From NCBI GenBank assembly GCA_031264185.1, contig JAISEL010000035.1, positions 1 through 64,000 of the forward strand: a DNA stretch of 64,000 nt, given 5' to 3'. This document shows positions 39,201 through 59,769 of the stretch, piece by piece. Made by a program: the position numbers and the translations under genes. This DNA is from Deltaproteobacteria bacterium. Its GTDB lineage: Bacteria > Desulfobacterota > Desulfarculia > Adiutricales > Adiutricaceae. Numbering within the stretch: the stretch's first letter is position 1; each line of letters starts with the position of its first letter. The notes beneath the pieces are model-generated. The model worked only from the letters and a program-made list of their open reading frames with translations. It did not search any database and was not told where the DNA came from.

Positions 39201-42200
39201 CATCTGATGAGCGATGCCTGGAGCGAGGGGCTGTTTTTTGCATCCCTGTTCGGCAGCGGCCGGGCGCCTTCTGCCGGTTTCGCCGGTTATCTTAAAGCCG
39301 TTTCTCTGAACGACCAGGAGCCGGACCGGATATTCTGGCGTGATTTTTTGAAGGATTTAAATGAAATAACCGAGCTGCCGGGGTACAGACGGCCCCTGAC
39401 GCCCGGCCTGACCGGCCGCGCCGTTAACCCGGGGGAAAGCGATAATTTAGCGCCGGCCCAAGTTTCAGGCCGGTCAGGGGAAAATTTAAAAACTCTGTCT
39501 TTTCCGCTTAATTTGCAGCAAAGCAATGACATCAGGAAGGCAGGCCGCTGGCTGCAGGCTGCGCCGGCCCTGTTTCTGGAGGCAGCCTGGGCCGTAATAG
39601 CGGCCAGGGCCGCCAGAGTCAGTCAGGTTTCCTATGCGGTGATCGATAACGGCCGCTCTCTGCCTCTCCAAGGCATAGCCGGTGTGATAGGCCCTTTGCT
39701 GACCGTCCTGCCCAGGCGGCTTTTCTACAGTCCGGAGTCCACTTTGGCCGATATGGTCAGGCAGATTTCCGCTCAAATGTCCGAAGTTCTGCCTCACGCA
39801 AACTTAACTTTGGCGGACATTCAAAAATGTTCCTCCCTTGGCCCGGGTTTTCTGACTCAGGTTTTTAACTACAGGCCGGCTGTAAGGACGCCTGAAGGAA
39901 TTCAAATTAAAAAAATTGACGATAAAAGCCGGGCTGAAGGCTTCCCTTTGGCTGTTAACTGGGAAAAATCAGATAATCTCTTCACTTTAGACTTTATCTA
40001 TGACAAAGCCGTCTTTGACTCTTATACGGTCAAATCCTTAGCTGAAGCCTATCTGCATTTTCTGAACACTATTTTTCAGGACATTCCCCGGCTGGCCGCC
40101 AAAGAGCAGCTCCGGCGCTTTAGTCTGTGTTCAGATGAGGAAGTCAGAAAACTGGTCACAGTCCGTAACGCTCCCGCCGTGAATTATCCGATCAGGACTG
40201 TGGTGGACGACTTTAACTCTTTGGCCGGCCGTTTTGAGGAAAGTCCGGCCGTCATTACCAGGGAGAAGAGGAAAACCTGCCGGGAGCTTGATGAAGAAAG
40301 CTTTTATCTGGCTGTCAGGCTTTATGAGATCTTTCAGAAGAGCCGTTTGAAGAGCAGAATGTCTTTCCGGGCGGCTCTTCTGCTCCCAAGGGACGTTAAC
40401 TATCCCGCCGCCGTCTGGGGAGTTCTGCGTTCGGGGGCGAGCTTTGTTCCTCTGGAATTGGGCGCCCCTTTGGAAAGGCTGTTATTTCAGCTCGATCAAA
40501 CCGGGGCCTCGGCTGCAATCGTTAATAAATCCCAGTTTCCTCTCTGGGCTGAACTGTCCCGTAAAAGGCCGGCCTTACAGATTTTGGATCTGGAATCCAG
40601 CCTGAGCCGGCCGCCGGATTATCCGAATGAACTGCAAGGCCGGAAGCTTCCGCCGGTCAGACCCTCCGATGAGGCCTACATCCTCTTTACTTCCGGCACT
40701 ACCGGTCAGCCCAAGGGAGTTTCTGTCCCCCACCGGGCCATCTATAACCATAACCGCTGGTTTGGAGACCTGATGGACGCCCAGCCCAGCGAAGTCCACA
40801 GCGCTTACGCGGCCTGGACCTTTGATGTTTCGGTTATGGAGATTTTGCTCCCCCTGAGCCGAGGGTCTGCGATCTATATTTTTGATGAATCGGAGCGCTT
40901 TGAGCCGGGGCTGATCAGCCAGGCGGTCAGGAACAACAGCATAAAGCATCTGTGGCTGCCTCCCCAGGTGGGCCAGACTTATATGGCCAACTACTCCCTC
41001 AGGGGCCTGAAAACCCTTAGTTTGGGCGGAGGGGTCTTTCCTTTGCCTTTTAAGGTGTTTGATCAGGGGGACTGCCGGCTGATTAACGGCTACGGGCCAA
41101 CGGAATGCGCGGTGACGGTCACCGCTAATTCAGCCGGACCGGGGTCTTGGCCGACTAATATCGGCGCCCCTGGAGCCAACTGCCCCATTTATGTCCTGGA
41201 TCCTTATGCAATGATGGTCCCTCTGGGCTTTGCCGGGGAATTGGCGGTGGGCGGGGTCCAGGTCGCCAGCGGCTACCTTCCCCCCGATCCCAATGATCCG
41301 CTGGTCTGCCTGGATCCGGGCGCTGATCCGGATTCGTCTGACGGTTCTGAGAATATCAAGGGGACACCGCCGTTTTTACCGGATAAGTTTTTTCATTACC
41401 GGAACGGCCAGTCCGGGCTTTATCCGCTTTACCGGACCGGAGATCTTGTCAGAAGACTGCCGGACGGGGCTTACGAGTTTTTAGGCCGCCTCGACCGGCA
41501 GATTAAAATAAGGGGGCGGCGCTTGGAGGTGTCGGAGATTGAAAAGGTTATCGCCGGCAGCCCTAAGGTGACCGAAAATACGGTAATTAAATGGACGGAA
41601 AATACTAAAGAAAAACTCATAGCCTATGTGGTCTTCCATCCGGCCGGGTCAGACGGCAGCGCAGAGCTGAAAAAAGAACTGGGCCTGAAGCTGCCTTCCT
41701 GGATGATTCCGGATTACGTTATGGCGGTTCCCCGGATCCCGAAAACCGCTTCAGGCAAACCCAACCTGACGGCCCTGCCCAAGCCGGTTTTAGTCTCGGT
41801 CTTTCAGGCTCCGGAAACCGCAGAGGAAAAGATTCTCGTGGCTGTTATCCGGGAGGTTTTAGGGGATGACAGCCCTATCAGTCTGGAAGATGACTTTCTG
41901 GCTTTGGGCGGAGATTCTGTTAAAGCCATTATGGCCGTGGCTTTACTGGAAAAGAGGGGATACAAGCTGCCGGCCAGGGCCTTATACGATGAGGCTACCT
42001 TAAGAGCCCTGGCCGCCTCTTTAAAGCCGGTGCCCGGCAGCGGCCGGGACAAAGCAGCCTTTGAGGCCGGTTCGCCGGGCGGATTCCGCCCGGCCTGTTC
42101 CGGCAGATCAGATGACTCTGACAGGGGGGTCAGCTTTTCTGACTCAGCAGTCTCAGAAGCTGCCGAGGGTTTCCAGGCCTTAGAGTCCTCGGTTTTCAGC

Positions 42201-45200
42201 TCCGGGTTCAGGCCGGAAACTGCCCCCGGACTGATAAATCCAGACGGACATAAAGATCCGCCTGCCGCCGGGGCCCTGGAAAGCGGACTTAAGGCTCAGA
42301 GTTCATTTCTGTCCGGGCGGAATTCTCAAGTCCTGGCGAATCCGTCTGATCAGTCTGATCCGGTCAGCCAGGCCGCGGCGGCTGATTTGCTCAGCCAGGA
42401 GGATCTTTTTTCCATAAGGGTTACGGAAAGCCTTCCTGCCGGCCCGGCTGCGGAACATTCGGCTTATGCCGTAAGCATAGATACTAAAGGACTGGGAGTG
42501 AACTTCCCGGCCCCTGCTTCTTCAGTCTCCGGGCTTAAGCGGCCTGACCGAAGTGACCATCAGGCCTCCCTCCGTTTCCGGCCGAAAACTTCAGAACTGA
42601 ACATCATTCTGTCCCAATATCCGAAAGACCAGGTTGTCGCTGTCCACGCCCTGACGGCTATGCAGGAGGCAATGCTCCTGGCCAGGGACGGCGACGCCTA
42701 CTGGATTAAGAATGCGGCCTCTTTAAACGGACCGCTGTCGGCGGAGAAATTAAGGGACAGCTGGGAGAATTTAGCTGCCAGTTATGAGATCCTCCGCAGC
42801 GCTGTTGTCAGTTTAGGTCTGTCCCGGCCTTACATGGTGGTTTTAAAAGAAAGGAAGCTGCCCTTTGAGTACCAAGATTTAAGCTCTTTGGCCCCAGAGG
42901 CTCAAGACAGCCTGATCAGTCTGGCTCCGGCTTTTCAGCCCGATTTGACTAAAGACCCGCTCATGGCTTTAAAAGTCTATAAGACGGCTCAGGACAGGCA
43001 CTGGCTGGTTCTCTTCTGGCATCACGTCATCCTGGACGGCTGGTCAATGTCCCGTATCTTAGGGAATCTTTTGGGGAAATCCTGCCTGGAGCCTCCGGCC
43101 GGCTCTCCGGAGGATCAGGTCAGTTTAAAATCAGGCGCCGTAACCGGTGCAGCAAATGAAGTGAACGGAACAGGGGTCAATGACGAACCGCCGGTCCGGC
43201 CGTTCCGCGACTATCTGAGCTGGCTGGAGCGGCAGCCGCACTCTTCAGCCCGCGCTTTTTGGTCCCAAGAACTGCAATCTGCGGAAATGGCCGCGACCGT
43301 GCCCAATCCCTTAGGCGGAGACGGGGTCAGAGACCCTGAGCCGGTGACTCTGGCTTTAGGCGCGGAATTGTCAGACCTCTTAAGGGCTTTAGGGAAAAGC
43401 GAGCGTCTGACTTTAAACGTTATCCTTCAGACTGCTTTGGGCATAGTTCTCTGCCGCTGCAACGGCCTGAGCTGCCAGGTCTTCTGCGGCCTGGATTCGG
43501 GCCGGTCCGGTCTGCCTTCGGAGTTGGCCGATGTGGTCGGCCCCTGCGTCAACCAGGTGCCGGTCCGGATTGATTATGATCCCCAAAGCAGTTTTGTCGG
43601 CCTGGCTAAAAAGGTTTTGGCCTTTAATCTGAAAGCCGTGGAATACGGCTTTTTGCCCTTAGCGGAGATCAGGACTTTAACCGGGCTGGACTTGGGCGGA
43701 CTTCTGTTCGCGCTGGAGAACCAGCCGGATTATCAGCTTCGGGGCCGCTACGAACTGACCCGGATTTTCAGTCAGAGCAGGGACGATCTGGGACTGGTTT
43801 TCGAGTGGTTTCAGGGCCGGAATTTGACCTTAAAGCTCCATTATGACGGCTTGAAATTTTCCCAAAGGCAGATTGAGGATTTGGCTGAATTTTACAGGGT
43901 CAGTCTCAGTTTTATCAGCCGCAGTCCTCATGACCCTGTGGGCGGGCTGGATATATTAACGCCTGAAGAGAAGGATCGGGTCATTGATCTCTGCTTCGGG
44001 GCCAAGACGGATTTTCCGGATGAATTAAGAGCTCTCGGGCTTAGCAGCCCGAAAAGCTTTATTGAAATCTTTATGAAAAGGGCCCGGCTGGATCCCGGTT
44101 CTCCGGCTCTGATCGAAAACGGCCGGACGGTTTTGACTTACGGGGAGCTGGATAATTTGAGCCTGGCCTTAGCCGGGCGCTTCAGGTCAATGGGAGCGGG
44201 GCCGGGGTCGGTGGTCGGCTTAAATCTCCCCAGAGGCCTGAATTACGCTGCGGCTGTCTTAGGAGTCTTAAGGGCCGGGGCCGCCTTTCTGCCCTTAGAT
44301 GTCTCCTGGCCTGAAGAGAGACTGGCCTTTGCGGTCAAAGACAGCCGGGCTAAGGTTATAGTTTCCCAGTTCTCCTCAGCCCCTCTTTGGGCGGGGGAGC
44401 TGGCGCATTTTACTTTTGAGTTCCGGAAGTTTTCTTCTGAGGCCAGGAAAACAGAGGACGGTTTTCGGGAAATGACCGTTCAGGCCGGGGAGCGGTCAGG
44501 CCGAATTCCGGCTTACGATCCGGAAGAGGCCGCTTACGTTATTTACACTTCCGGCTCCACCGGCCAGCCAAAAGGGGTGGTTGTAAAAAATCAGGGCCTG
44601 GTAAATATGGCCTTATGCTCTTTAGGTTTTTTTGACTTTAAGCTGAAAAAGCGTTTCAGTTTGTACGCGCCTGTTGCCTTTGACGCTTCGGTCTTTGAGA
44701 TCGTATTGGGTTTGGTCTCCGGGTCGGCATTAATCTCCGTTCCCGAAGAGATTCGTCTGGATCCCCCGAAACTTTCGCAGTTTTACGCTGATAACCTTAT
44801 CTATTTCGCTTTCCTGCCGCCTTTGGTCGGAGTGGAGGTCATTAAAGTCATTCAGGAGAAGTCCTCTCTGGAGATTCTGGCTTTGGCAGGGGACAAGCCG
44901 GGCCGGCTCTCTCCGGGCGGGAACGGTCTTAAGATCTATAATCTCTACGGTCCCACGGAGTTTACAGTTTGGTCCTCAGGCTACTTAATTGACCGGCCCC
45001 TGAACTCTCCTCCCATCGGCAGATCGCTGGCCAACTGCCAAAGTCTCATCTTAGATAAGGATTTAAACCTGCAGCCGCCGGGGTTAGTCGGGGAACTGTG
45101 CCTTTCCGGCCCCCAGCTGGCCAAAGGCTATTTGAACCGCCCCCAGTCAGAGGCCGGGGTTTTCCGGCCTAATCCCTATTCCAGAGGCTTAAAGGGTTTC

Positions 45201-48200
45201 GAGCGTCTGTACCGAACCGGAGATTTGGCCCTGTACGATTATCAGGGGCAGATAAATTTTTTAAACCGCCGGGATTTTCAGATAAAGATTCGCGGTCAGC
45301 GCCTGGAACCGGGGGAGGTGGAAAGGCAGATTTTAGCCGATGAGGAAGTAGCGGCAGTTTTGGTGGGCCTAAGTCCCAGGCTTGGGGACAGCGCCGGCTC
45401 TTCAGCTGATGAGACTGACCAGGCTTATCTGGTCGGCTGGGTGGTCCCTAAGATTTATCCGGCGGAGCCGTCTCTGGAGAGTCGAATCAGAACAAGGCTG
45501 ACCGGGGCTCTTCCGGCTTGGATGCGGCCAGGGTTTTACGTCTTCCTGGAGAAATTTCCCCAGGATAGGCACGGAAAAATAAGCGTCAAAGACTTGCCGG
45601 CCCCCGAGTTCCCAAAGACTGGAACCGGTTCCCCGAAAGGCGGTAACGGTGAGCTCCCGGGCTCCTTCCCTCAGGACCCCAATTCAGCAGGGCCGAATTC
45701 TGACGGGCAGCTGAGTCCGGCAGCGGCCCTGATTTCGGAAGTGAGCCGGGTCTTCAGCCGGGTCTTAGGTTTTTGGCCGGAGGAAGACGATCATTTTCTG
45801 GAAATAGGCGGGGACTCGATTAAAGCCATGATGGGCGTCTCCCAGCTGAGGTCTTTGGGCTACGATATCAGCACCAACGAGTTTTTATCAGCCCCGACCC
45901 CTAAAGCGGTGGCCGGGATTCTGTCCGCTAAGCCGCCGAAGTCCTTGAAGCCCTCAGAGTCTCCCGGGTCAGCCTCTTTTCGATCAGCGGATTCCGGCGA
46001 ACCCGGCCGGCCTGGCCTTCATAAGGCCGGCCAGTATGCCCGGGAGCTGGCTTTGGCCAGGGCGCATTTCGGATTAGGGACAGTTGAGGATCTCTTGCCC
46101 CTCGGACCTCTCCAGGCCGGCCTTTGGTTTCATTTGGCTCTGGAACCGGAGGCCCCGGTTTATGTGGAGCAGACTCTGTCCAAACTTAACGGAGTCTTGT
46201 CCGAAGAGCTGATAGCCGCAGCGGTCCGAAACATCGTCCGCAGGCATCAGGCTTTGCGCACCGTCTTTTGGGCCCCTGCCAGTCATTCACCGGAGTCAGG
46301 GCAGCCCTGGCAGGTCATTCTCAAGGATCTGCCTCCCTCTGTAACGGGCCTGAAAAACGCTGATTTACAGGTCAGTGGTTCTTTGGCCAGAGCCGAAAGG
46401 CAGGCCTTAAGCGGCCCCCGGGTTTTGGCGGGAGGCCCGCTATTCCGTTTAGTTATCAATGAGAAGGCCGGCCGGACAGAGATACTGCTGACTTTCCATC
46501 ACCTGATCCTGGACGGCTGGAGTGTGGGTCTGTTCTATGAGGAAATGCTCGGCGCCTTAAGTCATCAGGACTTTAGGCCCAGCTCCGGTCTTCCTTACTC
46601 TGAGTGCCTGAAAGCCTTAATGGCGGAAAGAGAAAAAAGCGGGCCCCATCTTAAATTTTGGGGAGAGCGTTTAAATTATGATCCCCCCGGGCCCTGGCCT
46701 TTAATAAGGGGCGCCGCCCCTGAGCCTGACGGATCCGGGGAGCTTAAAGCTTATAAAGAGATCGGACTGGCGCTTCAGGATTTGGCCCGGGATCTTTTTG
46801 ATTTGGCCAGAAGCCAAAGGGTCAGTCCGGCCACCTTAATCCAGGTCATCTGGGGCCTGCTGTTGCAAAAGTACCGGGGCGGGGCGGGATCCTGGTTCGG
46901 TCTGGTCGTTTCCGGCCGCGAGACGATTCCGGCATCTTTAGGGACTCTGGGCCTTTTTGTCAACACTGTGCCCCGCTACCTGCCCTTAAGCCTGAAAGCG
47001 GCTTTTGCAGAGGTTTTAGCCCAGACCCAGGCGGAGGCCGGAGCCGTCGGGGAGCACGCCTGCCTGACTTTGTCCGAGGCTTTAAAGGCCGCCGGTCATA
47101 ACGGACCGGCGGCCAGTATAATAGATCATCTTTTAGTCATTGAAAATCTGCCGAAAATTCAGGCCGCGGAGAATTTGGAGATAGCTTTTGAGAGCGGGTT
47201 CAATTATCCCGGATACGATCTTAATGCAGTTTTTTTTCTGTCTGAGGAATTGTCAGCCCCTGATTCGCCGGCAGATAACGCGGGGGCTGACTTCTGCCTT
47301 GACGGGCACATTAAATTCAGGGCCGACGTTTTCAGGCCCGATGATATTCAGACCCTGACAGGCCATTTCAGGTACCTCTGCCTGCAGGCTGTCAGCTCCC
47401 GCGGCCGGATGTCTGTCGGAGATTTTAAGCTGAACCGGCCTGAAGAAGAGGACGATATTATCCGTGCCGGATTCGGCGAAGAGCTGGCAGTCCCTTACGG
47501 CCTGATTTTCGGTTCCAGAAAGGCCGGCGGAGACAGTTCGGTCCCCTGGCCGGTACCCGTTTGTTTGGCCGGGCCAAAACCGTCCGCTTCGGAGTCGGCT
47601 GCGGAACCCCTGACGGAAAATTCCTTAGCCATAGTCTGGCCTGGGGGCCGGATGAGTTATTCCGGCCTTTTGGGGAAGGCGGGAAATCTGACGGCTGATT
47701 TTAAAGCCAAAGGTCTTGGTCCCGGGGCTCTGGTGGCCTTAACCCTTCCGCCAGGTCCGGCTTTGGTGATCAGCCTCCTGGCTGTTCTCCATTCGGGGGC
47801 TGCCTATCTGCCCATTGATCTTAAATGGCCTCAAGGGCGGATCGAGACCATCCTCAGATCGGCTCAGCCGGCCCTGGTCATTTCGGCTTCTGACAGCCCG
47901 AATCCGGTTCCGCCGTTCCAGGAAGTCCCGGAAGCTCCGGGAGCCGGGACTCCGGACAGTCTCTCTGACCGCTTTTCTGTAAAAGGCTTGTCGTTAAGTT
48001 CTCTGACTGTAGACTCCCTGGGAACCCCGGTCTCTTTTATCCCCGGGGCCTCATTTAAGGGCGCGGTCTCTTCAGGCTGCCCGGACCTGACTGACGGAAC
48101 AGCCTCCGCAGTCCCTGCTGACACGGCCTACGTCATCTACACCTCAGGCTCCACCGGCGAACCCAAAGGGGTCATGGTGGGCCGGGGGTCTCTGGCCGCT

Positions 48201-51200
48201 TTAGTTGCCGGTCTGGTTAAAGACTACGGCCTGACCTCCCAGGATCGCTCCATGGTGACCTTCAGTCCCGGGTTCGACGCCTTCGCCTGGGGTGTCTATC
48301 TTTTGCTAGCCGTTGGAGGTCAGGTCCATTTTCCGCCCCGGGATATTCTGACTGATGCGTCCCGGCTGCGGGATTATATGGCGGAAAACTCAGTCACGGT
48401 GGCCAATATGCCTACGGTCCTGGCTGAGGCCATCCAACGGTTGGAACCTCCTCAGTCCCTGAGACTTCTGACTTGCGGCGGCGACAGACTCAGTTTTTAT
48501 CAAAAGCGCCCCTACGCTTTTTACAACGAGTACGGTCCCACGGAAGCGACGGTTTTAGTCACCAAGCACCTGGTGACTGAAACCGCCGCCCCCATTCCCA
48601 TCGGGCGGCCCATCCCCGGGGTTCAGACTCTTATCTTAGGGCCGCATGACGAAATAAGACCTTTTAATATGGCCGGTGAGCTGGTCTTAAGCGGTCCCTG
48701 CCTGGCTTTGGGTTATTTGAGGCGGGAGGATTTAACTCAGGCCAGCTTTGCCGAAAACCCCTGCGCTTTAAAGGCCGGGGCGCTCCGGGAGCCCCGGCCC
48801 TCTCCCAATTTCGATCCCAGCTCCTATCAAACAATCTACCGGACCGGGGATCTGGCCAGAATGGGCCCGGACGGCCTGATTGAGTTTATCGGGCGGATAG
48901 ACAGCCAGGCCAGTATCGGCGGGATAAGAGTCGAACCGGCCGAGGTGGAGGCCAGAATTAAGGATAATCCCCAGGTGGATCGGGCTTTGGTTTTAGCCCG
49001 CAAAGATGCCGCCGGAGACAGTTTTTTAGCGGCCTATATTACGGCCGGCGCAGCCCGAGGGGCCAATTCTGAAAGCCTGGGTTCGGGGGAAGCCTTGATT
49101 AAGACGGTCACTGACCATTTAAGCGCCCATCTGCCTACGGCCTTCAGGCCCAAGTTCATCTGCCTGTTAGACCGGTTCCCTTTGACGGCTAACGGGAAAA
49201 TTGATTATTTGGCCCTCCCGGCGGCCGGTAACGCCCCGGTCGGCTCTGCGGACCCGGAAAAGACGGGGCTCCCCGAATCTTATAAGCCCCGGAGTGCGGT
49301 GGAGGCCAGCGTTTTGGAAGCGTACCGGGAAATTTTGGGGGCAGCGGATGCTGACGGCATAGACCCTGAAGCGGATTTTTTCAGCTTAGGCGGCGATTCC
49401 TTAAAGGCCGTGCGTTTAGCGGCCCGTCTGGAGACAGTCCTGAAGGCGGCCCCTAAGGTGTCGGAACTTATAGGCGGGTTCAGCCTAAAAAAACTCTGCG
49501 AGTCTGTTGAAGGCCGGAAGGCCGGCCGGAAGGAGATTCTTTCCCCTTTAAGGTTAGGCGCTGGTCCGGCTCTGATAATCGTGCCCACTGTGGGCGGCAG
49601 TCTCTGGGCTTACCGGGAGTTTTACCGGAGACTGCCTCAGGACCGTTCTCTCTACGCTTTGGACCCCAATTGGGAGTCAGCGGTTTCAGCCGTTGAGGCG
49701 GTTAATGGGGCCGATAAACTGGCCGCTCTGGTCAGACCCTACGCTGAGGCTGTACTGGAACTCCGCGCTGAGGTGGTTCTCTGCGGCCTGTGTCTGGCCG
49801 GACTGACCGCCTGGGAACTGGGCCGCCAGCTTCTCGACCGGGGGGCTCAGGTCAGATCTCTGTTGTTTTTCAATGCCCGAACCCGCCTTTTGACTGAAGG
49901 GGAGCCGGTTAAAGAAGGCGATTCGCCTCCTGAGGCGATGGCCGAAGAACTTCTGTCTTCCATGCGTCTGTATGAAGGCGCCGAAAAATTCCCTGACCGG
50001 CCGGAAAATTTTATAAATATGAGTTTCCCTGAACACCTCAGACGTTACGCGTCGGCTCAGCTGTCGGCCTGGGGATTTTACCGGCCGCAGCCGATGGATG
50101 TAAAGCTGACTTGCCTCAGGCCTTTGGATTCCTTCGGGCCAAAGTACCTGCCCTTTGAAACCGGCCCCCTGGGCTGGGAAGAGCTGGCCCTGCAGGGTTA
50201 CCGGGAGGTCCGCACCCCGGGTCACCACTATGACCTTTTAAGGCTCCCCGCGGTCAATACTGCGGTCACGGTAGCCGGAGAACTGACCGCCGAGAAGACC
50301 TCCAGACCTGCGGTTCCTCTGACTCCAATCCAAAAGTGGTACTTTGAACTGGGACCAAAGGCCTGGCCCATGTTTCAGAGTGTCGGGCTGGTGAGCCAAG
50401 TCGCCAGGCCGCCGTGGGTTTATCTTCTGGTTTTAGAGGACCTTTTAAAGACCCATCCGATGCTCCGGGCGAGTTTTCCGGAAAATGACGGCGGCGCTGA
50501 GGCCAGGATAACCTCAGATTTTACGGCTTTCACTTTTGAGATATCGGCGGATCGGAATTTAGAAGGACTGACGGAAAGATTCGGCCAGATAGCCCGGAAA
50601 TACTTGCAAAATGCAGATCCCTTAGTCATATTTTTATTGGGCCGGACTGACCAGGGGCAGGACTGTTTTCTTTTGGCCGTCCACCATTTGGTGGTTGATA
50701 ATGTTTCCTGGCGGGTTTTGGAAAGCGACTTTAAGCGGTCTCTTTCGGCTTTGGACGGCCAGGGGGTTTTGGATTATGACCGGGCCAAAAACGGCCTGGC
50801 CCGTCTGCCCAAACCGGAAGCGTCCGGCAGCGTCTTCCGGATTTATGCCCAAAAGCTGTCTTCATTGGCCTTGGACAATGATTTTTTGGCGGCTGAGGCC
50901 GCCTACTGGGGCGGAGCTTTAGAGGCCATGGGGCCGCCTCTGCCTTCTTTAGCGGAGACGCTCCGAAAGGCCCCCGAATTCAGAGGCCTCAGAGTCAGTA
51001 AAACTCCGGAAAAAGCAAGTTTGCAGTTTGAATTAAACAGTTCGGACACTGAGCTTTTTCTGACCGCTCTGGGTCCGGAATTTGGGGCTCGGGAAATGCT
51101 TTTAACGTCCCTGCTGCTGTCGGCCGCTGAGGGTTTCGGAGTTAAGGAGCTGACTTTCTGCCTGGAAGGGCACGGGCGGACCCCTGTTTTCCCGGAAGCG

Positions 51201-51701
51201 GATTTGGCCTCGGCTGTTGGCTGGTTTACGGTTTTGTATCCGGTCCGGCTAAGCTTAGGATCAACCCCCTTGGATACTTTGAAGATCGCGGCCGAAAAAC
51301 TTAGGGCTGTCCCTCATAACGGCATCGGTTACGGCGTTTTAAAATATCTGGCCGGGCAGAATAATCCTGGCTGTCCGCCCGGCTGTTCCGGTCCGGGGGC
51401 TGAACTGCCTAAACTCCCTTGGCTTAAGCGTCCGGCTGACGTTCTGTTTAACTATTTAAGTGAAATTAATTCCGGGGCTGAAGAAACCTCTTCAATAAGT
51501 ATTGAGAGGCTGGGCTCCCCCTACGACAGTCCGGTCACTTTTCCGGCCCAGGGATCTTTGTCCGTAAGCGCTTTTATCGACAGGGGCGCTCTGAAATCCA
51601 CCTGGATTTGGTCTGAGGCGATCAACATTGATCTGCTGAGCTGGGCTGCCGGGTTCCAAGCCAGCCTGCTTGGCTTAGGACGTATTTTAAAGGGCGTTTA
51701 G
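33238..51701 (+). CDS. non-ribosomal peptide synthetase, about 6150 aa: ACP - class III aminotransferase (AMT) - C-A-T - C-A-T - C-A-T - C-A-T - TE(Cys) - C
   Basis: Carrier motif GLDSL (about 33340). AMT PLP-fold with YGKLIGGG (34150-35400). C motifs SHLMIDG (35787), HHLMSDAWS (39199), HHVILDGWS (43018), HHLILDGWS (46494), HHLVVDNVSW (50680). Four A domains each with (Y/F)TSG(S/T)TG(Q/E)PKG, FD(A/V)S, N.YGPTE, YRTGD, K.RG. Four PCP GGDS(V/I/L)(K/G)A motifs. TE with GLCLAG at 49785. Start codon uncertain (33180/33238/33247, all in frame). Confidence 0.95.
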
Positions 51702-51705
51702 GCCG

Positions 51706-52509
51706 ATGAGTCGCTTTTTAGTGTTAGCCGGCCGGCTGGCCCCGGAGCTTTTAGACCGGAATCTAGGCGGTTTGACCAGGCTGTTCGGTTATCTGGCCGA
51801 AGAGCAGACTTTGGCAATTCAAAAAAACCGGCGGCCTCAAGATGCGGCCTTAAGGCTGCTGGTCCGGGTGTTATTGGTTAAAGCCTTAGATCTTAACGGT
51901 TTGGACGGCCTTTCAATACTGCCTGATCTTATCTGGAATGACCGTGGTCAGCCGGAACTGAAAGGAAGCCCTCTGAGGTTAAGCTTCAGCCACTCCTGGC
52001 CTTACGGGGCCTGCGCTGTAGCTTTGTTTCCTGTGGGGGTGGATGTGGAAAGAATCCAGCCATTGGCGGTCGGCGGGGCCGGTTCGGTTTTCTCGGATTC
52101 TGAAGTGCGCCGCATTTCGGGATCCGATGATCCTCAGTCGGAAGCCATCCGTCTTTGGACAGTCAAAGAGTCCGGTCTTAAAGCTCTTGGGGCCGGATTT
52201 TTAGAAGATCCTAAAAGGCTGAAAACTGAACCGGTCTTTAATGAGTCAGCCGGACAAAAGGCGCCGCCAGCGGGGCGGTCGGTTTGGGGCAGTCGGACGA
52301 TCTATTTCGGGCATTTGCCGGTGGACCCAGGCTACTGGCTGTCCTGGGGCGCCTGTCCGGATTTTCAGGAGCCGCCGGTAAATTCTCAGGCCGGTCAAAG
52401 TCTTAAAGCCTCTGAACAGGTCCGGGCCTCTGCCCGTTTTTTCGGGCCGGCCTCCCTTATTTATCTGCCCCGGGTCAGTGAGTATATAATGAACAGACTC
52501 ATAGAGTGA
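51706..52509 (+). CDS. Sfp-type 4'-phosphopantetheinyl transferase
   Basis: Motifs GVDVE and WTVKESGLKALG. Starts 4 nt after the NRPS stop. Confidence 0.85.
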   Translation: MSRFLVLAGRLAPELLDRNLGGLTRLFGYLAEEQTLAIQKNRRPQDAALRLLVRVLLVKALDLNGLDGLSILPDLIWNDRGQPELKGSPLRLSFSHSWPYGACAVALFPVGVDVERIQPLAVGGAGSVFSDSEVRRISGSDDPQSEAIRLWTVKESGLKALGAGFLEDPKRLKTEPVFNESAGQKAPPAGRSVWGSRTIYFGHLPVDPGYWLSWGACPDFQEPPVNSQAGQSLKASEQVRASARFFGPASLIYLPRVSEYIMNRLIE

Positions 52510-52551: not shown

Positions 52552-55500
52552 ATGATTTTTTTGGGTAGGAGTATGAAAGATCTTATATACGTATTTTCCG
52601 GTTTGGGCTCGCAGTGGGCGGGCATGGGGGCTGATCTGATAGATTCCGACCAGGTTTTCACCGAAGCCTTCAGGGAATTCGATTCGAGTTTCCGGGCCTG
52701 CAGCGGCTGGTCCGTTGAGGAAAAGCTGTTCCGCTCTGACGAGCCCGTAGCCTTATCTTACGCCCAGTTCTGGCATCCGGCCATTGTGGCTGTCCAGTAC
52801 GCTCTGTATAAGGCCTGCGAAAACAGACTGCCCAAACCTCAGGCTGTCCTCGGGCACAGCGGCGGAGAGGCGGCGGCCGCTTTAATAGCCGGGGCTTTAA
52901 GCTTGAAAGAGGCGGCCTGTCTGACCTGCGGACACATTAAGCTTATGGAAAAGACCTCTCCCGGCGCACTTATGCATCTGCCCATAAGCTTTTCGGCCGC
53001 TAAGGAGCTGACTGAAGGGACCTCTATAACGGTAGCCGCCGTCAATTCGCCCTCTTCGGTGGTTTTAGCCGGCGACAGCGGGGTTTTAAATGATTTTCTT
53101 TTAACTGAAAATCTGACCGGGACGGCCCGCCTTGTTCCGTTTGACCGCTCTTTTCATTCGCCGGCTTTAGAGCCTTTCGGAGCGGATTTTGAAAAAAATC
53201 TCCAAATAAAACCCCAAAAGGCTAACTTTACATTTATCTCTTCCTTTCTCGCCCGGATTGTCCCTGGCGAGGCTTTAACCCCCGCCTACTGGCGCCGTCA
53301 TGCGGCCGAACCGGTTCGCTTTGATAAAGCCGTAGAACTGTCTTTGTATTTGGGAGCCAAAGGGTTCGTAGATTTTTCCCCCCATCCGATATTCCTTCAG
53401 GCGCTGCACGAGACGGCCAGTCTTCAGGGCCGGAACATCTTTTATGTCAATTTAATGCAGCGGCATCAGAAAAGTCTGCCGGTAATAGCCTCAGCTTTGA
53501 CTAGATTAAAAGAGGCCGGGAGCAAAACGTTCAGCTCTTCTGGGCCTCAGGCCTCTGAAGACCGGGACGGCCCGGAAAACCTGCTCCCGCCCGGAGCCTC
53601 AGATCCGACCCTCCAGGCTGACCTGGAGCTGCCGGGCCTGAACATTCATCAAAGGGCAGCGGCTTTAGAAAAGTTTCTGGTCAGTAAGCTTCACGAACTG
53701 ACCGAAATTCCGGATGACCGGACCGGGGAGACCGCCCTGTGCCCTTTTATGAGTCTGGGTCTGGATTCCCTGAATTTGGTCAGCCTGATTAATGATTTAG
53801 CTTTAAAGACCGGCCTGACTTTGGCCCCGTCTTTGGTGTTCAGCTACCCGGAAGCCAGATCGCTGGCCAGGTATTCAGCTGAAGCCATGGAACTCCCCAA
53901 GTCTGATTCCGGTGAGACCGGCTGCTTTTTAAAATCCTCCGCTGCCCAGTCCTCTTCCGATCGGCGCCCGGAAGTTAAGGCCGGTCTGACCGGCCGCGAA
54001 CCTCTGGCCGTGGTTGGCCTGGCTTTTCGGTTTCCGGGCGGGGCTGTGGATGGTGAGAGTTTTTGGCGGATACTTAAAGAGGGCAGGGATGCGATCGGAA
54101 TAATTCCCAAAAGCCGCTGGAATGCAGAGGATTTTTATCATCCTGACCGTGAACACCCAGGGACCATGTACACCCGGTCCGGCGGCTTTATTGAGGATAC
54201 TTTCCAGGGATTTGACGCTAATTTTTTCGGTCTGGCCGGCCGTGAGGCCAAGCAGCTCGACCCCCAGCAGCGTCTTTTGCTGGAACTCAGCTGGGAGGCC
54301 TTTGAAGACGGCTCAATTGATCCTCTGAAGTGGAAGAATAAGCGGGCCGGGGTGTTTTTAGGCATGACCAACAGCGAATACAGCCGGGCCCACCGCGATT
54401 CTTTTGACCGGGACCTCATTGATGCCTATTCCCTGACCGGAACCACTATGAGCGGGGCCTGCGGCCGGCTGTCTTATTTTTACGGCTTTAATGGTCCCTG
54501 CTTTACGGTAGATACCGCCTGTTCTTCCAGCTTGGTCGCCTTAGCCCAGGCCGGTCAGAGTCTGAGAGCCGGGGAATCGGATTTAGCTTTGGTCGGGGCG
54601 GTTTCTTTGATGCTCATTCCGGAAATGCACATCTGCTTCACCAAGTTGGGGGCCATCAGCAGCGACGGGCGCAGCAAGGCCTTCGATGACGGGGCTGACG
54701 GTTACGGCCGGGGCGAAGGGGCGGCGGTAGTCCTGCTGAAAAGGCTGGGGGACGCCGAAAAAGCCGGGGATCGGATTTTAGGGACTATTAAGGGGCACTA
54801 CCTTAATCAGGACGGACGGAGCAACGGTCTGACCGCACCCTCTGGTCTGGCCCAGCAGGAGCTGATCAAAGGCTCTTTGGCGGACGCCGGACTGCTGCCT
54901 TCGGAGATTGATTATGTGGAAGCCCACGGAACCGGCACCTCTTTAGGCGATCTGGTGGAGCTGGAGGCCTTGTCGGCGGCCTACGGCCCCGGGCGCCTGA
55001 AGCCTTTGCTGATCGGCTCAGTCAAGGCCAATATCGGGCACTTAGAACCGGTGTCCGGCCTGGCTTCCCTGATTAAAGTCCTACTGGCCATGAAGCACGG
55101 TCAGATTCCGGCTAATATTCACTTAAAAAGCCCTAACCGCCGCTTTGACTGGGCCAAAGGCCGGATTGCGGCCCCCACCTCTTTGGTAAGCTGGCCGGAT
55201 AATGAGTCCGGGGCCTTAAAAAGGGCCGGCCTGAGCGCTTTCGGTTTTTCCGGGGTCAACGGGCATCTGATAGTCGAAGAATACCGCCGAACGGAATCAG
55301 CCGCAAGCCTGAAAGGGCAGTCTGCGGACAGTGTGGCTTCTGAGCCGCCCATCCTTCTCCTTTTGTCGGCCAAGAGTCAGAAAGCCCTGGAAGAACTGGC
55401 CTTTAAGGTCGCCCAAAGGCTCAGAAACTGCGATCGCCGGGCAGCCCTGAACTTAGCCTACAGTCTGGCCAATCACCGGCCGCACTTCGAATTTCGGGCA

Positions 55501-58500
55501 GCCTTAGTCGGCAGCTCTCCTTCGGAATTAGCGGACCGGCTAGCCAGTATCCGGGTCCGTAAAACCAGAGGTCCAAGACCTCTCGGCCTTTTATTTACCG
55601 GTCAGGGCTCCCAATGCCCCGGTTTAGGCTGGGAGCTGTATAAAGCTTACCCGGTTTTTCAGGAAAGTCTGGATTCTGCCCGGAAGCTCTTGCTGCCCCG
55701 GGGTATTGATCCGATTAGTTTAATTAACCCTGACCTCCCTCCCGAGGCGCTGACCCCGACTCAGATTTCCCAGCCTTTGATTTGCGCGGTCAGTTTGGCT
55801 TTGTACGATCTTTGGACTTATGTGGGCCTGACTTTTGACAGTGTCCTAGGGCACAGCGTCGGCGAGTTCCCGGCTTTAGCCGCCAGCGGGATCCTGGATC
55901 GCCGGACCGCAGTGGATCTGGTCTGTCAAAGAGGCCTTTTAATGGCCCAGGCCCCGGACGGTTCCATGACAGCGGTGTTCGCTTCAGTTGCGGAGATAGA
56001 GCCGGTTTTAAAGGACTTTCCGGATGTCAGGATCGCGGCCGATAACGCAGTCTCTTCTGTAACTTTATCCGGTCCCGCTGACTCTTTAAGCCGGTTGAGC
56101 GGGTATCTGGAGAAAGAAAAGATCAGTTCAGTGCCTCTGAAGGTTTCGGCGGCTTTTCATTCTCCGGCCATGCAGGAGGCCGCTGAAAAGTTTGACGAGT
56201 ATATCTCCCTCAAGTACGGTCAGAACAGCCCCGACTCTTTTTCTGACCTGGAAAAAACGGGCCGGCGGGGAGAATTTGGCTTCCGTCAGTCCAGGGAATC
56301 TCCGGCGCCTCTCAGCCCCTGCGGACTCCTGCAGCCGAAGGGCAGCCAGTATCCGGTTTTTATCTCCAGCCTTTTGGCTCAACCGGCTTATTCGGTCGAT
56401 TCCGGCTATTTTGGCCGACAGATCGCCTCACCGGTACGTTTTCGGGAGGCCAGTTCCGTTATGGCCCAAAGAGTCAGTCTGGCCGTGGAGGCCGGTCCCT
56501 CGGGAGCCCTTTCCGGGCTGGTGGCCCAGGGCGGGCAGATATTAGGACTCAGCACTCTGAAGCCCGGCCGTTCGGCTCTGGAGAGCTTTTTGGTCGCAGC
56601 CTCGGAACTGTATCAGGAGGGGTTTGATCTTGACTGGGGCAAGGTCTGGGAACCTCTTCCCCAAGGCCGGACCAGTCTGCCTGCCTATCCCTTCCAAAGG
56701 GAGCGCTTCTGGCTGGAAGTCCGGCACTCCCCGCCGCACTTTCCGGCCCCGAAAGCCGGAATGGCCGCCGCTGAAGCTGATGAGGCCCCCCGAAAAAGGC
56801 ACCCCGTTTTAGGCCGCCTCATCAAAAGTCCGGCTCTGGGCAAAGCCTCGGTCTTTGAAACCGTCTTCAATGAAGAAGGACCTAGGTTTCTCTGGGAGCA
56901 CCGCATCCTGGGGCGGGCCGTCAGTCCGGCCGCCGGGCATGCGGCCATGGTCTTAGCGGCGGCGGAAGCTCTGCGCGGCCGGGCGGTCTGCGAATTGAAG
57001 GAGGTCAGCTTTACCCAGCCTTTAGTGATAGGTCCTCGGGAGGAACGTCTGGTTCAGGTCATTGTCGATAATCCCCAGGATGACTTAAGCGCCTTTTCTT
57101 TGGTCAGTTGCGGAAAAAATGCTTCTGAGTTTGTCACCCATGCGGCTGGTTTTATTAGTTTTGCAGTCCCAGAAAAGCCCAAAAATAATCCGGAGGCCGT
57201 AAAACAGCGGCCTCAGACCATGACCGTGGACAGTTACTGCAGCGCTTTCGCTGACTACGGGTACGGCTTAGCCCCGGACTTCTGGCGGCTGTCTTCAATT
57301 TTTGTCGACGGCCCGGAAAATTACTGCCAGGTGGAAGCCAGAAGACACACCCCCTCAGAAGCCGGTCACGTCATTTATCCGGGCTCTTTAGACAGTGTCT
57401 TTCAAACCACTATGCCGGCCGTAATTAATGAGGCCGTACCTTTTATGGTCGCCAATAACGGCCTTTTTGTCCCTCTGTTCATGGAAAGTCTGAGTTTGTG
57501 GGCCCAGGTTCCTGAAAAGCTTTTTTGTCACGGCCTGACGAAGTTCAGCGCATCCCCTCTGGGCATCACCAGTTCCGTGACGGCTTATGACCGGACCGGG
57601 GAGCCGGTCCTGGCTGTCAGATCCCTTTATCTGCCCCTGACCAGTCAAAAGGTTTTTTACAGGCGGCCGCCTTTGACCCCGGCCCCGGTTTTTGGCCGTG
57701 ATTCAGGAACCGCTGAGGACCAATCCCCGCTGCGTTTTTATCTGGAGAAATGGCAGAAGGCAGATCTGTCAGCGGCAAAAAAAGTTACTCAGCTGAGCCG
57801 TGAAACTGTCAGCTGCGATAATCTGCCTGACCTGAAAGATCGGGCGCTTGAAGTCATCAGTCTGGGCCGTTTCCTGGCTCAGGGCTCTGAGGCCGGGGTT
57901 TTAGCCGGCCGGGATAAAAGCCGCCGGAATTTCACCGGTTATTCAGCCGAAGCTTCCTCCCGGCTGACGTTATCGGCTGACTGCGATATTGTCTTACTGG
58001 CTCCTGCCGGTCAGACGGAGATCTCCGCCGAGCTGCCCTTCAGAGAGCTTGCCCTCTTCAATGAATGCCTGGCTTATGTAAAAGTCCTCTTAAAAAGCCC
58101 GTATAAGCACCGGATACATTTGGTCACCGCACGGGCCAGAGTCGTTGACTGCATAGAGCATCCGGACAGCGGCGGCCGCAATGAGCCGGTCTCTTTGCAG
58201 GGCGCCAGCCTCATCGGCTTAGGCCGGACTCTGGCTTTGGAAAGACCGGATCTCTGGGCCGGGCAGCTGGATATATCTGGGGACAGCCGGGAAGATGCTC
58301 TGGAGATTATCAGACGCTTAAATAATGAACTGTCCGGTGAGCCTTACGAACTGGCTTTTCGGGGCGGGGTTTTTTACGAGCCTTTCTTATTAAATCATCA
58401 GGCGCCCTCCGGCTTGGATCTCCCTGAAGCCCTTAAAGACCATAAAGACAATAATGTCCAGGGAATTCAGGTCATCACCGGGGCCAACGGCGCCTTAACC

Positions 58501-59769
58501 CGAAAACTGGCTGAACATTTAGTCGGCAGAGGCGCCCGGGAGCTAGCCTTAATCAGCCGGGAGGGCTTATCCGGCGAGTCTTTGCAGCTGGCTGAGGAGT
58601 TAAGGGCCAGGGGCGTTACAGTTCTGGATTTAAACGCTGATGTCACGGTTTTTGGGGAATTGAGCCAGGCTCTGGCCTCAGCCAGAGAGGCAGGTGCGAT
58701 AAAGGGGATATGGCATCTGGCCGGGACTCTGGCGGATGGGCTGATTGAGGCTATGTCCGAGGAGAGGGTCCTTAAGGTCTTAGGGCCCAAGATTTTTGGA
58801 GCCGTTAATCTCCATCTGGCAACTTTAAAAGATCCCCTGGACTATTTTACGCTTTTTTCTTCCGTAGCCGCTCTTTTGGGATCAGCCGGTCAGGCCGGCT
58901 ATGTCTCCGCCAACTTTTTTATGGAGGCCATTGCCCGTTACCGGCGGCTGCAGAAATTGCCCTCGGCCGCTCCTGAGTGGGGCCCACTGGCCGGTTCCGG
59001 CATGGCCGGCAGTGCCGTGCGCGGTGATAACCTCAGGCGTCAGGGTTTTATTCCGCTGGAGACTTTTGAGTTCTTCCGGGTTTTGGATTCAGTCTTGGGG
59101 CAAAAATCGGAGGACTCAGAGGTCCTTGGGGTGTTCGGGGCTGTGAAGATGGACCTGGAAAAATTTTTCCGGCACCCGGAACGGCGCCGGGACCGGCGCC
59201 TTAAGTCCATTATCCCCCGGCCGGCCAAGACCGGCGGACCAGGGAACGGGTCGGGAGACCGATCCCGCCGCGCCCCCGGGGACGGTGTAAACGACGGGTT
59301 AGCCTTAGCTTTAAGCCAGTTAAATCTGGCAGGGGACCGGGGGCCCGTTCTGCAGGAACTGACGGAACTGGCCGCCGATCTTTTAGGCTTCGCTCCTCAG
59401 GATATCGATCCGCAAAAACCTTTAAGCGACTACGGCTTTGACTCCCTGATGACGGTTTCCCTGCGCAACCGGCTGGGCAGCGCTTTAGGCCGCAGCGTTC
59501 CGGTATCTTTAGCCTTCGAGCACCCGACAGTTTCGGCTATGACCGACTGGCTGGCTTTAAATTTTGGCCCGGCCTCCGGTGAGGCGGCCGGCGGCCTGGG
59601 GGTTGCCGGATCCTCAGAATCCGACCGGCAGGACCAGCCGTACCTGCCGGATAAAACCGATCGGCCTGACCGGTTTGACCGGACTGCCCCCCCGCTGGCT
59701 CCACTCGGAGGGGCGATTAGTGTCGATGCCCTGATGTCGGACATAGAAAAGCTTTTGGATAATCAATGA
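52552..59769 (+). CDS. type I polyketide synthase: loading AT-ACP + module KS-AT-DH-KR-ACP
   Basis: AT1 GHSGGE (about 52850). ACP LGLDSL (about 53760). KS DTACSSSLVAL / EAHGTGT / NIGHLE. AT2 GHSVGE with AAFHS (malonyl-type). DH HRILGRAVSPAAGH. KR GANGALTRKLA. ACP GFDSLMTV. Alternative start ATG 52573. Confidence 0.95.
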   Translation: MIFLGRSMKDLIYVFSGLGSQWAGMGADLIDSDQVFTEAFREFDSSFRACSGWSVEEKLFRSDEPVALSYAQFWHPAIVAVQYALYKACENRLPKPQAVLGHSGGEAAAALIAGALSLKEAACLTCGHIKLMEKTSPGALMHLPISFSAAKELTEGTSITVAAVNSPSSVVLAGDSGVLNDFLLTENLTGTARLVPFDRSFHSPALEPFGADFEKNLQIKPQKANFTFISSFLARIVPGEALTPAYWRRHAAEPVRFDKAVELSLYLGAKGFVDFSPHPIFLQALHETASLQGRNIFYVNLMQRHQKSLPVIASALTRLKEAGSKTFSSSGPQASEDRDGPENLLPPGASDPTLQADLELPGLNIHQRAAALEKFLVSKLHELTEIPDDRTGETALCPFMSLGLDSLNLVSLINDLALKTGLTLAPSLVFSYPEARSLARYSAEAMELPKSDSGETGCFLKSSAAQSSSDRRPEVKAGLTGREPLAVVGLAFRFPGGAVDGESFWRILKEGRDAIGIIPKSRWNAEDFYHPDREHPGTMYTRSGGFIEDTFQGFDANFFGLAGREAKQLDPQQRLLLELSWEAFEDGSIDPLKWKNKRAGVFLGMTNSEYSRAHRDSFDRDLIDAYSLTGTTMSGACGRLSYFYGFNGPCFTVDTACSSSLVALAQAGQSLRAGESDLALVGAVSLMLIPEMHICFTKLGAISSDGRSKAFDDGADGYGRGEGAAVVLLKRLGDAEKAGDRILGTIKGHYLNQDGRSNGLTAPSGLAQQELIKGSLADAGLLPSEIDYVEAHGTGTSLGDLVELEALSAAYGPGRLKPLLIGSVKANIGHLEPVSGLASLIKVLLAMKHGQIPANIHLKSPNRRFDWAKGRIAAPTSLVSWPDNESGALKRAGLSAFGFSGVNGHLIVEEYRRTESAASLKGQSADSVASEPPILLLLSAKSQKALEELAFKVAQRLRNCDRRAALNLAYSLANHRPHFEFRAALVGSSPSELADRLASIRVRKTRGPRPLGLLFTGQGSQCPGLGWELYKAYPVFQESLDSARKLLLPRGIDPISLINPDLPPEALTPTQISQPLICAVSLALYDLWTYVGLTFDSVLGHSVGEFPALAASGILDRRTAVDLVCQRGLLMAQAPDGSMTAVFASVAEIEPVLKDFPDVRIAADNAVSSVTLSGPADSLSRLSGYLEKEKISSVPLKVSAAFHSPAMQEAAEKFDEYISLKYGQNSPDSFSDLEKTGRRGEFGFRQSRESPAPLSPCGLLQPKGSQYPVFISSLLAQPAYSVDSGYFGRQIASPVRFREASSVMAQRVSLAVEAGPSGALSGLVAQGGQILGLSTLKPGRSALESFLVAASELYQEGFDLDWGKVWEPLPQGRTSLPAYPFQRERFWLEVRHSPPHFPAPKAGMAAAEADEAPRKRHPVLGRLIKSPALGKASVFETVFNEEGPRFLWEHRILGRAVSPAAGHAAMVLAAAEALRGRAVCELKEVSFTQPLVIGPREERLVQVIVDNPQDDLSAFSLVSCGKNASEFVTHAAGFISFAVPEKPKNNPEAVKQRPQTMTVDSYCSAFADYGYGLAPDFWRLSSIFVDGPENYCQVEARRHTPSEAGHVIYPGSLDSVFQTTMPAVINEAVPFMVANNGLFVPLFMESLSLWAQVPEKLFCHGLTKFSASPLGITSSVTAYDRTGEPVLAVRSLYLPLTSQKVFYRRPPLTPAPVFGRDSGTAEDQSPLRFYLEKWQKADLSAAKKVTQLSRETVSCDNLPDLKDRALEVISLGRFLAQGSEAGVLAGRDKSRRNFTGYSAEASSRLTLSADCDIVLLAPAGQTEISAELPFRELALFNECLAYVKVLLKSPYKHRIHLVTARARVVDCIEHPDSGGRNEPVSLQGASLIGLGRTLALERPDLWAGQLDISGDSREDALEIIRRLNNELSGEPYELAFRGGVFYEPFLLNHQAPSGLDLPEALKDHKDNNVQGIQVITGANGALTRKLAEHLVGRGARELALISREGLSGESLQLAEELRARGVTVLDLNADVTVFGELSQALASAREAGAIKGIWHLAGTLADGLIEAMSEERVLKVLGPKIFGAVNLHLATLKDPLDYFTLFSSVAALLGSAGQAGYVSANFFMEAIARYRRLQKLPSAAPEWGPLAGSGMAGSAVRGDNLRRQGFIPLETFEFFRVLDSVLGQKSEDSEVLGVFGAVKMDLEKFFRHPERRRDRRLKSIIPRPAKTGGPGNGSGDRSRRAPGDGVNDGLALALSQLNLAGDRGPVLQELTELAADLLGFAPQDIDPQKPLSDYGFDSLMTVSLRNRLGSALGRSVPVSLAFEHPTVSAMTDWLALNFGPASGEAAGGLGVAGSSESDRQDQPYLPDKTDRPDRFDRTAPPLAPLGGAISVDALMSDIEKLLDNQ

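Follow-up and report, generated by a model that had tools for sequence, protein, structure and literature searches.

We examined a 64,000-nucleotide stretch of DNA (contig JAISEL010000035.1; hereafter "the window") from a contig of a Deltaproteobacteria metagenome-assembled genome (MAG), which carries a hybrid nonribosomal peptide synthetase (NRPS) with an unusual ending. The whole NRPS is a single unbroken open reading frame (ORF) at 33180..51701 on the + strand and has 6173 amino acids (aa) in the ORF list. Its domain order, as established from the ORF list, Pfam, a motif scan and segment mapping, is an ACP, about 230 aa that are unassigned, an aminotransferase, four modules that each consist of condensation (C), adenylation (A) and carrier (T) domains, a thioesterase (TE) and, behind the TE, an epimerization (E) domain. 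Pfam and the motif scan place the aminotransferase, which is of class III, between the N-terminal carrier domain and the four C-A-T modules, and GGDS carrier serine motifs were located by the motif scan at aa 1727, 2910, 4210 and 5404.

The fourth and last carrier domain (T4) occurs at 49287..49499 (+) according to Pfam (PP-binding), its motif and the translation, with the phosphopantetheine Ser5407 in the sequence GGDSL (nt 49389-49403). It is followed by a Thioesterase match (PF00975, 29-34 bits versus a cut-off of 26.4) and then by a Condensation match (PF00668, 80 bits, E 1.9e-22). The first match belongs to a type I thioesterase-fold domain at 49530..50279 (+, aa 5451-5700), and the second to the terminal domain at 50310..51701 (+, aa 5711-6173, about 465 aa), which starts with AVPLTPIQ and whose coordinates include the stop codon at 51699-51701. 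An initial annotation of the window had described a domain of roughly this length after the TE, followed by the end of the protein, and its coordinates are accurate (nt 50310-51698, then the stop codon). The linker between the two domains, ELTAEKTSRP (50280..50309, +), was delimited from the sequence and the family alignment. Given that it is only about 10 aa long, there is no space for a second carrier domain between TE and E.

The initial annotation regarded the terminal domain as a condensation-like domain. That it is a complete member of the condensation superfamily is correct, but we conclude from motifs, sequence matches to solved chains, structure matches and a tree that its subtype is E and not condensation. 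(Pfam, TIGR01720 and alignments were also used to characterize it.) For typing, we used a set of motifs that we take to be specific to E domains, namely PIQxWF, EGHGRE, (T)VGWFT, GxGYG and FNYLG. The terminal domain contains PLTPIQKWYF (motif E1), HHLVVDNVSW at nt 50682-50711 (E2, previously noted at about 50680), EGHGRT at 51165-51182 (E4), VGWFT at 51216-51230 (E5), NGIGYG (E6) and FNYL at 51447-51458 (E7). The catalytic histidine is His5836 in E2 (codon 50685-50687), and the glutamate of E4 is Glu5996 (codon 51165-51167).

Comparison with all solved chains using phmmer yielded only E domains below an E-value of 0.01, which were those of BacC, TycA, PvdL (E2), TycA (PCP-E), GrsA and TycB3, with E-values from 2e-33 to 8e-26. 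In the BacC chain containing both an E and a C domain, the E part scores 109 bits, versus 5.9 for the C part. Similarly, a Foldseek search with the AlphaFold model gave E domains at ranks 1-13 (9e-30 to 1e-25, 23-27% identity), and the TM-scores with solved E domains are 0.74-0.78. The next matches are five orders weaker, with strengths no better than 2.5e-20, and consist of the CmodAA domain of AmbE, CmnI, and ordinary C, X and Cy domains. We also constructed a neighbor-joining tree of 10 domains of this family, 45 canonical E domains and 64 C domains with 40 bootstrap replicates. The E and family domains were separated from the C domains in 40/40 replicates, and the family domains formed their own clade in 39/40. 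The terminal domain does not match any of the C domains of its own protein (C1-C4) in either direction, and it is the sole E-type domain in the NRPS according to the motif scan and this comparison.

These data bear directly on two roles suggested initially, namely that of a CT-type domain that closes a macrocycle and that of a domain that joins the peptide to an amine delivered in trans. A terminal condensation-type role would suit a domain that closes the assembly line, has the full condensation-superfamily fold and carries an HHxxxD motif. However, no solved condensation, CT, starter or Cy chain reaches an E-value of 0.01, the tree splits the terminal domain from C domains in every replicate, and the E-only motifs EGHGR, GWFT and FNYL are there. 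We therefore consider a condensation-type function extremely improbable, and we rejected a C or Cy identity based on the sequence, tree and structure matches. Fungal CT domains have an SHxxxD motif and stand in for a TE (PMC10510592). The terminal domain has HHLVVDN, and the protein has a TE, so we rejected this identity also.

The Pfam alignment of the terminal domain is partial, spanning model positions 5-339 of 456, and the initial annotation had considered that partial coverage would speak against a complete domain. In this case, the short coverage reflects divergence and not truncation. The terminal domain is taken as complete because its residues 23-455 align to the PvdL E domain with phmmer, because its AlphaFold model (pLDDT 79.6, pTM 0.80) has both lobes, and because Pfam positions 6-433 are covered in one of its relatives (P0049).

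We found relatives of the TE-E ending in an exhaustive HMMER search of 1.84 billion representatives, from which the best 150 of 14,196 matches were taken as a census. Nine relatives in this census match both TE and E, mostly in one continuous alignment and with 33-40% identity. Five are large (P0031, P0033, P0039, P0042 and P0048) and four are fragments (P0035, P0037, P0049 and P0114). All nine (9/9) have the order T-TE-E, and every protein stops right after E. Since other assemblies contribute nine further clusters (at 50% identity) with this ending, the TE-E fusion is not an assembly artefact. Seven near-complete sequences, representing five clusters, all have the order [ACP]-aminotransferase-(C-A-T)x4-TE-E. 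The gene calls of P0042 and P0048 start inside or just before the aminotransferase, and P0183, a longer cluster mate of P0048, has the ACP. Other lineages with the T-TE-E order may exist beyond the census.

The relatives come from MAGs of Deltaproteobacteria, Candidatus Accumulibacter and a Betaproteobacteria bacterium, all of which are assemblies of uncultured bacteria, and none of the relatives is characterised. Further searches did not extend the family. A word-indexed protein search with the TE-E query found only canonical E domains with about 30% identity, the TE alone had no match in it, and the TE family profile retrieved one unrelated T-TE fragment. Canonical E domains were also all that a scan of GTDB species genomes retrieved, and a scan of metagenome contigs found no relative. 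We observed two peculiarities within the family. P0033 has the motif DHMSVDN, and the N-lobe of its E domain contains about 100 inserted residues (aa 5494-5611). In P0183 (aa 1740-1948) and P0048, two tandem carrier domains follow the first A domain, and the first A domain of P0183 aligns poorly and gives an aberrant specificity code.

Conservation within the family argues for a functional domain. In an alignment of 15 E sequences, including 7 family members with 27-34% identity, there is no variation in the second His and the Asp of HHxxxD, in EGHGR or in the Asn of FN[YF], and GW[FL]T is conserved as well. The conservation of the second His and the Asp, proposed earlier as a check, is thereby confirmed. 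Based on these sequence features, the terminal domain is probably catalytically active. An alternative is that it is non-catalytic, serving as a scaffold or recruitment platform (for a stand-alone TE, a phosphopantetheinyl transferase [PPTase] or an export component) or representing the decaying relic of a T-E ending. Some E domains are inactive, such as one in LgrA (PMC10510592), and a location behind the TE is hard to square with ordinary carrier access. By contrast, orthologues with about 30% identity all keep the catalytic His, the Asp of HHxxxD, the Glu of EGHGR and the Asn of FN[YF]; because of this invariance, neither a relic nor a pure scaffold is expected, and we regard the non-catalytic explanation as decidedly unlikely. 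The docking domain or inactive relic mentioned in the initial annotation also fits poorly with the catalytic His and EGHGR Glu, which are unchanged in the relatives of 33-40% identity, and with the lack of a docking tail. The family alignment reveals no COM-donor docking tail in the window's NRPS or its relatives, in contrast to P0001, which has one.

X-type recruitment domains no longer have the second His (PMC1894796), whereas the terminal domain keeps it as an invariant residue. The X domain is found at Foldseek rank 21 (2e-19), and an X-type identity was rejected. We saw no P450 partner among the genes scanned, which were those of the window and downstream of it.

Pfam, AlphaFold, Foldseek and the family alignment all support the assignment of the preceding domain as a TE. 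Its AlphaFold model (pLDDT 86, pTM 0.88) indicates that it is a real alpha/beta-hydrolase TE, and the best Foldseek matches are the TEs of AB3403, Vlm2, Pks13, tautomycetin, Skyxy, SulM and SrfA-C. In place of the Ser of GxSxG, the nucleophile at the strand-helix elbow is Cys5538, in the sequence GLCLAG (codon 49791-49793). Asn5565 (codon 49872-49874) is directly after beta6 (strand 108-114 of the model), i.e., at the usual site of the triad Asp (position I), and His5683 (codon 50226-50228) comes after the last strand (224-229 of the model). The same Cys, Asn and His are found in all 9 family sequences. Glu5660 (codon 50157-50159), which is part of a PFE motif in the loop after beta7 (position II), is conserved in 8/9 sequences, and the ninth has D/E nearby. 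Judging from the alignment, this Glu could be an alternative acid. The window's TE scores 129-196 bits against those of eight relatives, 38 bits against the short TE remnant of the fragment P0114 and at most 28 bits against the other TEs listed.

Three NRPS TEs with a Cys nucleophile have been characterised structurally, namely those of SulM, which forms a beta-lactam, ObiF1, which forms a beta-lactone, and AB3403; SulM and ObiF1 are active (PMC11298585). In SulM and ObiF1, the Asp is relocated to the loop after beta7, and AB3403 has it at the usual site (PMC11298585). The window's TE shares the Cys at the nucleophile elbow with all three. AB3403-TE is its best match in both sequence and structure, but retains the Asp at position I, where the window's family has an invariant Asn. 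In lacking this Asp, the window's TE resembles SulM and ObiF1, although these have an Asp at position II, where only the candidate Glu of the PFE motif is present here. In addition, the Gln-Cys-Asn hallmark of SulM is replaced by Leu-Cys-Leu/Met in the family, there is no sulfotransferase (a trait of the SulM cluster) among the genes scanned, and the expected lipotetrapeptide substrate is larger than those of SulM and ObiF1. None of the SulM, ObiF1 and AB3403 TEs is followed by an E domain, unlike the TE in the window. The TE of NocB and Skyxy-TE (7CRN), of which the latter is among the structural matches (Foldseek ranks 31-36), deal with the same problem, in that the C-terminal residue has the D configuration at release. 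However, in these systems the TE itself epimerises, whereas the TE in the window is fused at its C-terminal end to a separate E domain that is intact.

Taking these observations together, we consider it fairly likely that the terminal domain is a working E domain that was relocated behind the TE, with its catalysis predicted from sequence and model. The usual order T-E-TE would be permuted to T-TE-E. In the proposed mechanism, the polyketide synthase (PKS) genes and the N-terminal ACP-aminotransferase would make a beta-amino acyl starter, to which the four C-A-T modules would add four amino acids, and the resulting lipotetrapeptide would be held as a thioester on T4. The E domain, using His5836 and Glu5996, would remove and return the alpha-proton of the last residue, leading to a mixture of L and D forms. 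Cys5538 of the TE would then take the chain, presumably in the D form, and release it by hydrolysis or ring closure. Thus, the C-terminal residue would become D on T4 before release by the Cys-TE, where what E acts on, the sequence of events, TE stereoselectivity and the chemistry of release are all inferred. We speculate that, since a Cys thioester is near the carrier thioester in energy, a chain that is caught too early could go back to T4.

The fourth A domain (A4, window 47670-49230) has the specificity code DAWNLCEVLK, and its relatives have DAWNxGE[IV]MK, with the Glu at position 322 kept. This Glu suggests that a basic or diamino acid may be the residue that is epimerised. For a TE of the SulM/ObiF1 type, the last A domain would be expected to select Dap or a beta-hydroxy amino acid (PMC11298585). 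The codes were extracted using a GrsA reference, which gave the known Phe code DAWTIAAICK. A chain hand-off to a further synthetase was rejected. A second NRPS gene is found neither in the window nor in the 10 kb downstream, and the protein has no COM tail; therefore E cannot pass the chain to another synthetase.

Several points weigh against this proposal. To our knowledge, E directly follows the carrier domain in all characterised cases. In GrsA, for example, the linker from carrier to E is 20 aa (PMC10510592). The context here differs, as T4 and E are separated by a TE of about 250 aa, and E, which ends the protein, is not followed by a COM tail, a TE or a D_C_L domain. The main weakness of the proposal is this geometry, since T4 would have to reach E across the intervening TE. 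Also, the TE lacks the usual Asp, such that its catalytic competence is not assured from its sequence. As for the E domain itself, the Gly of HHxxxDG is an Asn (HHLVVDN), as it is in P0033, and the first His of HHxxxD is lost in P0033 and P0035. The terminal domain scores 80 bits with Pfam versus 200-230 for canonical E domains, and the E-associated model TIGR01720 yields 47.5 bits, which is below its cut-off of 74.2, and covers model positions 5-104 of 155. This E clade is divergent and could have changed its chemistry. Lastly, three upstream C domains resemble those that accept D donors yet have no E partners, and one epimerase for residue 4 does not fully explain the stereochemistry.

A changed chemistry might mean that the E fold and its proton-abstracting residues are kept for another reaction, which could be a dehydration as in the CmodAA domain of AmbE, or a ring closure to a beta-lactam or beta-lactone together with the Cys-TE. 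In addition to the low Pfam score, the mean tree distance from family to canonical E domains is 1.70, versus 0.99 within canonical E domains. The partner TE, with its Cys and without an Asp at position I, is like the ring-forming TEs of SulM and ObiF1, and the dehydrating AmbE domain is the best structural match other than E domains. However, that match is five orders of magnitude below those of E domains, and all E-specific motifs are kept. The absence of Gln-Cys-Asn in the TE and of a sulfotransferase among the genes scanned also disfavors this explanation, which we judge to be unlikely. We return to the working E domain as the preferred interpretation.

The elongation domains C2-C4 (window 38757-39930, 42597-43740 and 46077-47250) are most like solved D_C_L domains. 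Compared to solved C domains with D donors (BacC C after E, McyB, SrfA-C, TycB1 and PvdL C3), C3 and C4 score 100-120 bits and C2 scores 69 bits. By contrast, C2-C4 score at most 60 bits versus C domains that are not located after E (Txo1, Txo2, DhbF, LgrA and TycC6). The motif scan and the comparison of C1-C4 found no E domain in modules 1-3. Dual E/C domains have the motif HH[I/L]xxxxGD (PMC1894796), which is present in no family member, although partial forms such as FHHLL and HHQLARDGGD occur in some relatives. Therefore, a dual E/C identity of C2-C4 by the textbook motif was rejected.

Three options could reconcile these data. First, C2-C4 may possibly be dual E/C-like without the textbook motif, as D_C_L and dual E/C domains are sister groups (PMC1894796). 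If so, a terminal E domain would be a natural solution for the sole residue that has no downstream C domain. Second, the D-lineage C domains could here take L donors, and domains of the D_C_L lineage that do so occur in glycopeptide synthetases (PMC1894796). Third, the terminal E domain could serve several carriers. This last option amounts to a shared cis epimerase, in which E would also epimerize the residues on T1-T3 and feed D donors to the D_C_L-like C domains. It would account for the better match of C2-C4 to D-donor than to L-donor C domains, the lack of E domains in modules 1-3 and the lack of the dual E/C motif throughout the family. However, we know of no precedent for an E domain acting on carriers that are thousands of residues away. 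Moreover, no dual E/C structure was among the matches to C2-C4, so these domains may be of that sister type despite lacking the textbook motif, and there are the L-donor domains of this lineage in glycopeptide synthetases (PMC1894796). We regard a shared epimerase as very unlikely.

A related but broader idea is that T-TE(Cys)-E is a functional unit. Either one E domain would supply D residues to several modules, or the Cys-TE and E would together be a device for dynamic kinetic resolution, in which chains would pass back and forth between the thiols of the carrier and the TE until release of the D form. Both versions predict a lipotetrapeptide that is largely or wholly D, which would match the D-peptidase-like surface protein encoded upstream. 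We think it quite unlikely that this idea is correct, and an ordinary E domain that acts on T4 is the reading that we retain below.

The canonical E domains of TycA (2XHG), TycB3 (6TA8), GrsA (PCP-E, 5ISX) and PvdL (E2) have the same two-lobe fold, all seven E motifs, the catalytic His and the EGHGR Glu in common with the terminal domain. While they are attached to a carrier domain via about 20 aa, the window's E domain is attached to the C terminus of the TE by its short linker. It further differs in being the last domain of the protein, where no COM tail, C domain or TE comes after it, in belonging to a separate, divergent clade, and in having DN instead of DG.

ACV synthetase exemplifies a termination module with the order C-A-T-E-TE, and P0006 and P0007 have such modules. 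Their last module has the same set of domains, and the same D configuration of the C-terminal residue and release by a TE are expected. However, E and TE are swapped, and the TE here has Cys and Asn rather than Ser and Asp. Hybrids of the iturin/mycosubtilin type combine a PKS part, an ACP-aminotransferase and C-A-T modules to make a beta-amino fatty acyl peptide. The window's system shares this layout, but has four modules on one protein, the T-TE-E ending, Gram-negative hosts and another gene order. In SurE-type release, the NRPS ends in T-E and has no TE in cis, and a cytoplasmic cyclase with a beta-lactamase fold (PF00144) acts in trans. The window's NRPS likewise ends in E, and a gene with the PF00144 fold adjoins it. 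In this case, though, a TE is present in cis and the PF00144 protein carries an autotransporter beta-domain, because of which it should act at the cell surface and not on a carrier domain. The system thus does not fit release of the SurE type (PBP-like TE). We found no description of a T-TE-E ending in the literature searched, in keeping with the initial remark that a C-like domain after a TE is unusual.

We now note properties of the surrounding genes and of the rest of the NRPS. The stretch between the N-terminal carrier domain and the aminotransferase (aa 100-330, window 33477-34169) has no Pfam match and is weakly conserved in relatives (28-79 bits). A gene for an Sfp-type PPTase (51706..52509, +; Pfam ACPS, NCBIfam and synteny) starts 4 nt past the NRPS stop codon. 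Its position is kept in three relatives examined, and in a fourth, a shorter ACPS-family gene is about 480 nt downstream. Two PKS genes follow at 52552..62894 (+), for which Pfam gives the orders AT-ACP-KS-AT-DH-KR-ACP and KS-AT, respectively. Based on the logic of the domains, the ACP-aminotransferase at the N terminus of the NRPS presumably receives their product. The second PKS gene (59766-62894) has no carrier domain of its own, and is presumably served by the N-terminal ACP of the NRPS. Since the PKS loading and extension genes are downstream of the NRPS, which begins at 33180, the gene order is not colinear with biosynthesis. Beyond the window, the downstream genes encode an ABC transporter, a stand-alone thioesterase, a small unknown protein and an RND pump.

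The gene directly upstream of the NRPS (29159..33037, +) encodes an S12/beta-lactamase-fold passenger, whose SxxK motif is SQSK, and an autotransporter beta-domain, as determined with Pfam, matches to solved chains and synteny. The solved chains nearest to the passenger are the alkaline D-peptidase 4y7p and the D-stereospecific S12 peptidase 3wwx, with weak scores of 30-38 bits. The autotransporter gene occurs directly upstream of the NRPS in 4/4 loci examined, which are the window and the related loci L008 (5922-9815), L011 (6341-9922) and L012 (5964-9698). This synteny suggests that it is part of the pathway, and at the cell surface the passenger may act on a peptide with D residues, either processing or detoxifying it. 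The related loci have the order DUF697, beta-lactamase-fold autotransporter, NRPS and PPTase, while the placement of the PKS, the type II TE, the pump and an FkbH-like cassette varies among them. The window also has a DUF697 gene (28213-28755) just 5′ of the autotransporter gene, and a second DUF697 gene is at the far end of the cluster (L007 21474-22034).

The FkbH-like cassette occurs beside the PKS in L008 (31737-35103) and L012 (780-4134) and contains a HAD-type hydrolase, a small ACP, an acyl-CoA dehydrogenase and a 3-hydroxyacyl-CoA dehydrogenase, which points to a hydroxymalonyl- or methoxymalonyl-ACP extender. Given that the window has no such cassette, the lipid part differs between family members. 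The gene cluster is rich in G+C (54-59% at 30000-64000) versus its flanks (37-45% at 1-8000 and 24000-30000), and there is a second rich island at 16-24 kb. This contrast may reflect horizontal acquisition of the cluster. An Rfam scan of the window yielded no match.

The novelty of this system is its conserved, unusual domain order and its rare type of TE, in a family of clusters for uncharacterised lipopeptide synthetases, but the epimerization itself is probably ordinary. The domain order of an NRPS serves to predict the structure of the product and the timing of reactions. By rule, the TE comes last, and an E domain that is conserved behind it and is apparently functional departs from this rule. 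Genome-mining tools may label such a terminal E domain simply as C. If our interpretation is true, a domain need not be adjacent to a carrier domain in sequence to be served by it, which would bear on NRPS engineering and on the rules used in genome mining. A Cys/Asn/His type of thioesterase would be added to the three structurally characterised NRPS Cys-TEs. The window would then also represent an unstudied family of lipopeptide gene clusters in uncultured Delta- and Betaproteobacteria, whose unusual partner is a D-peptidase-like autotransporter gene.

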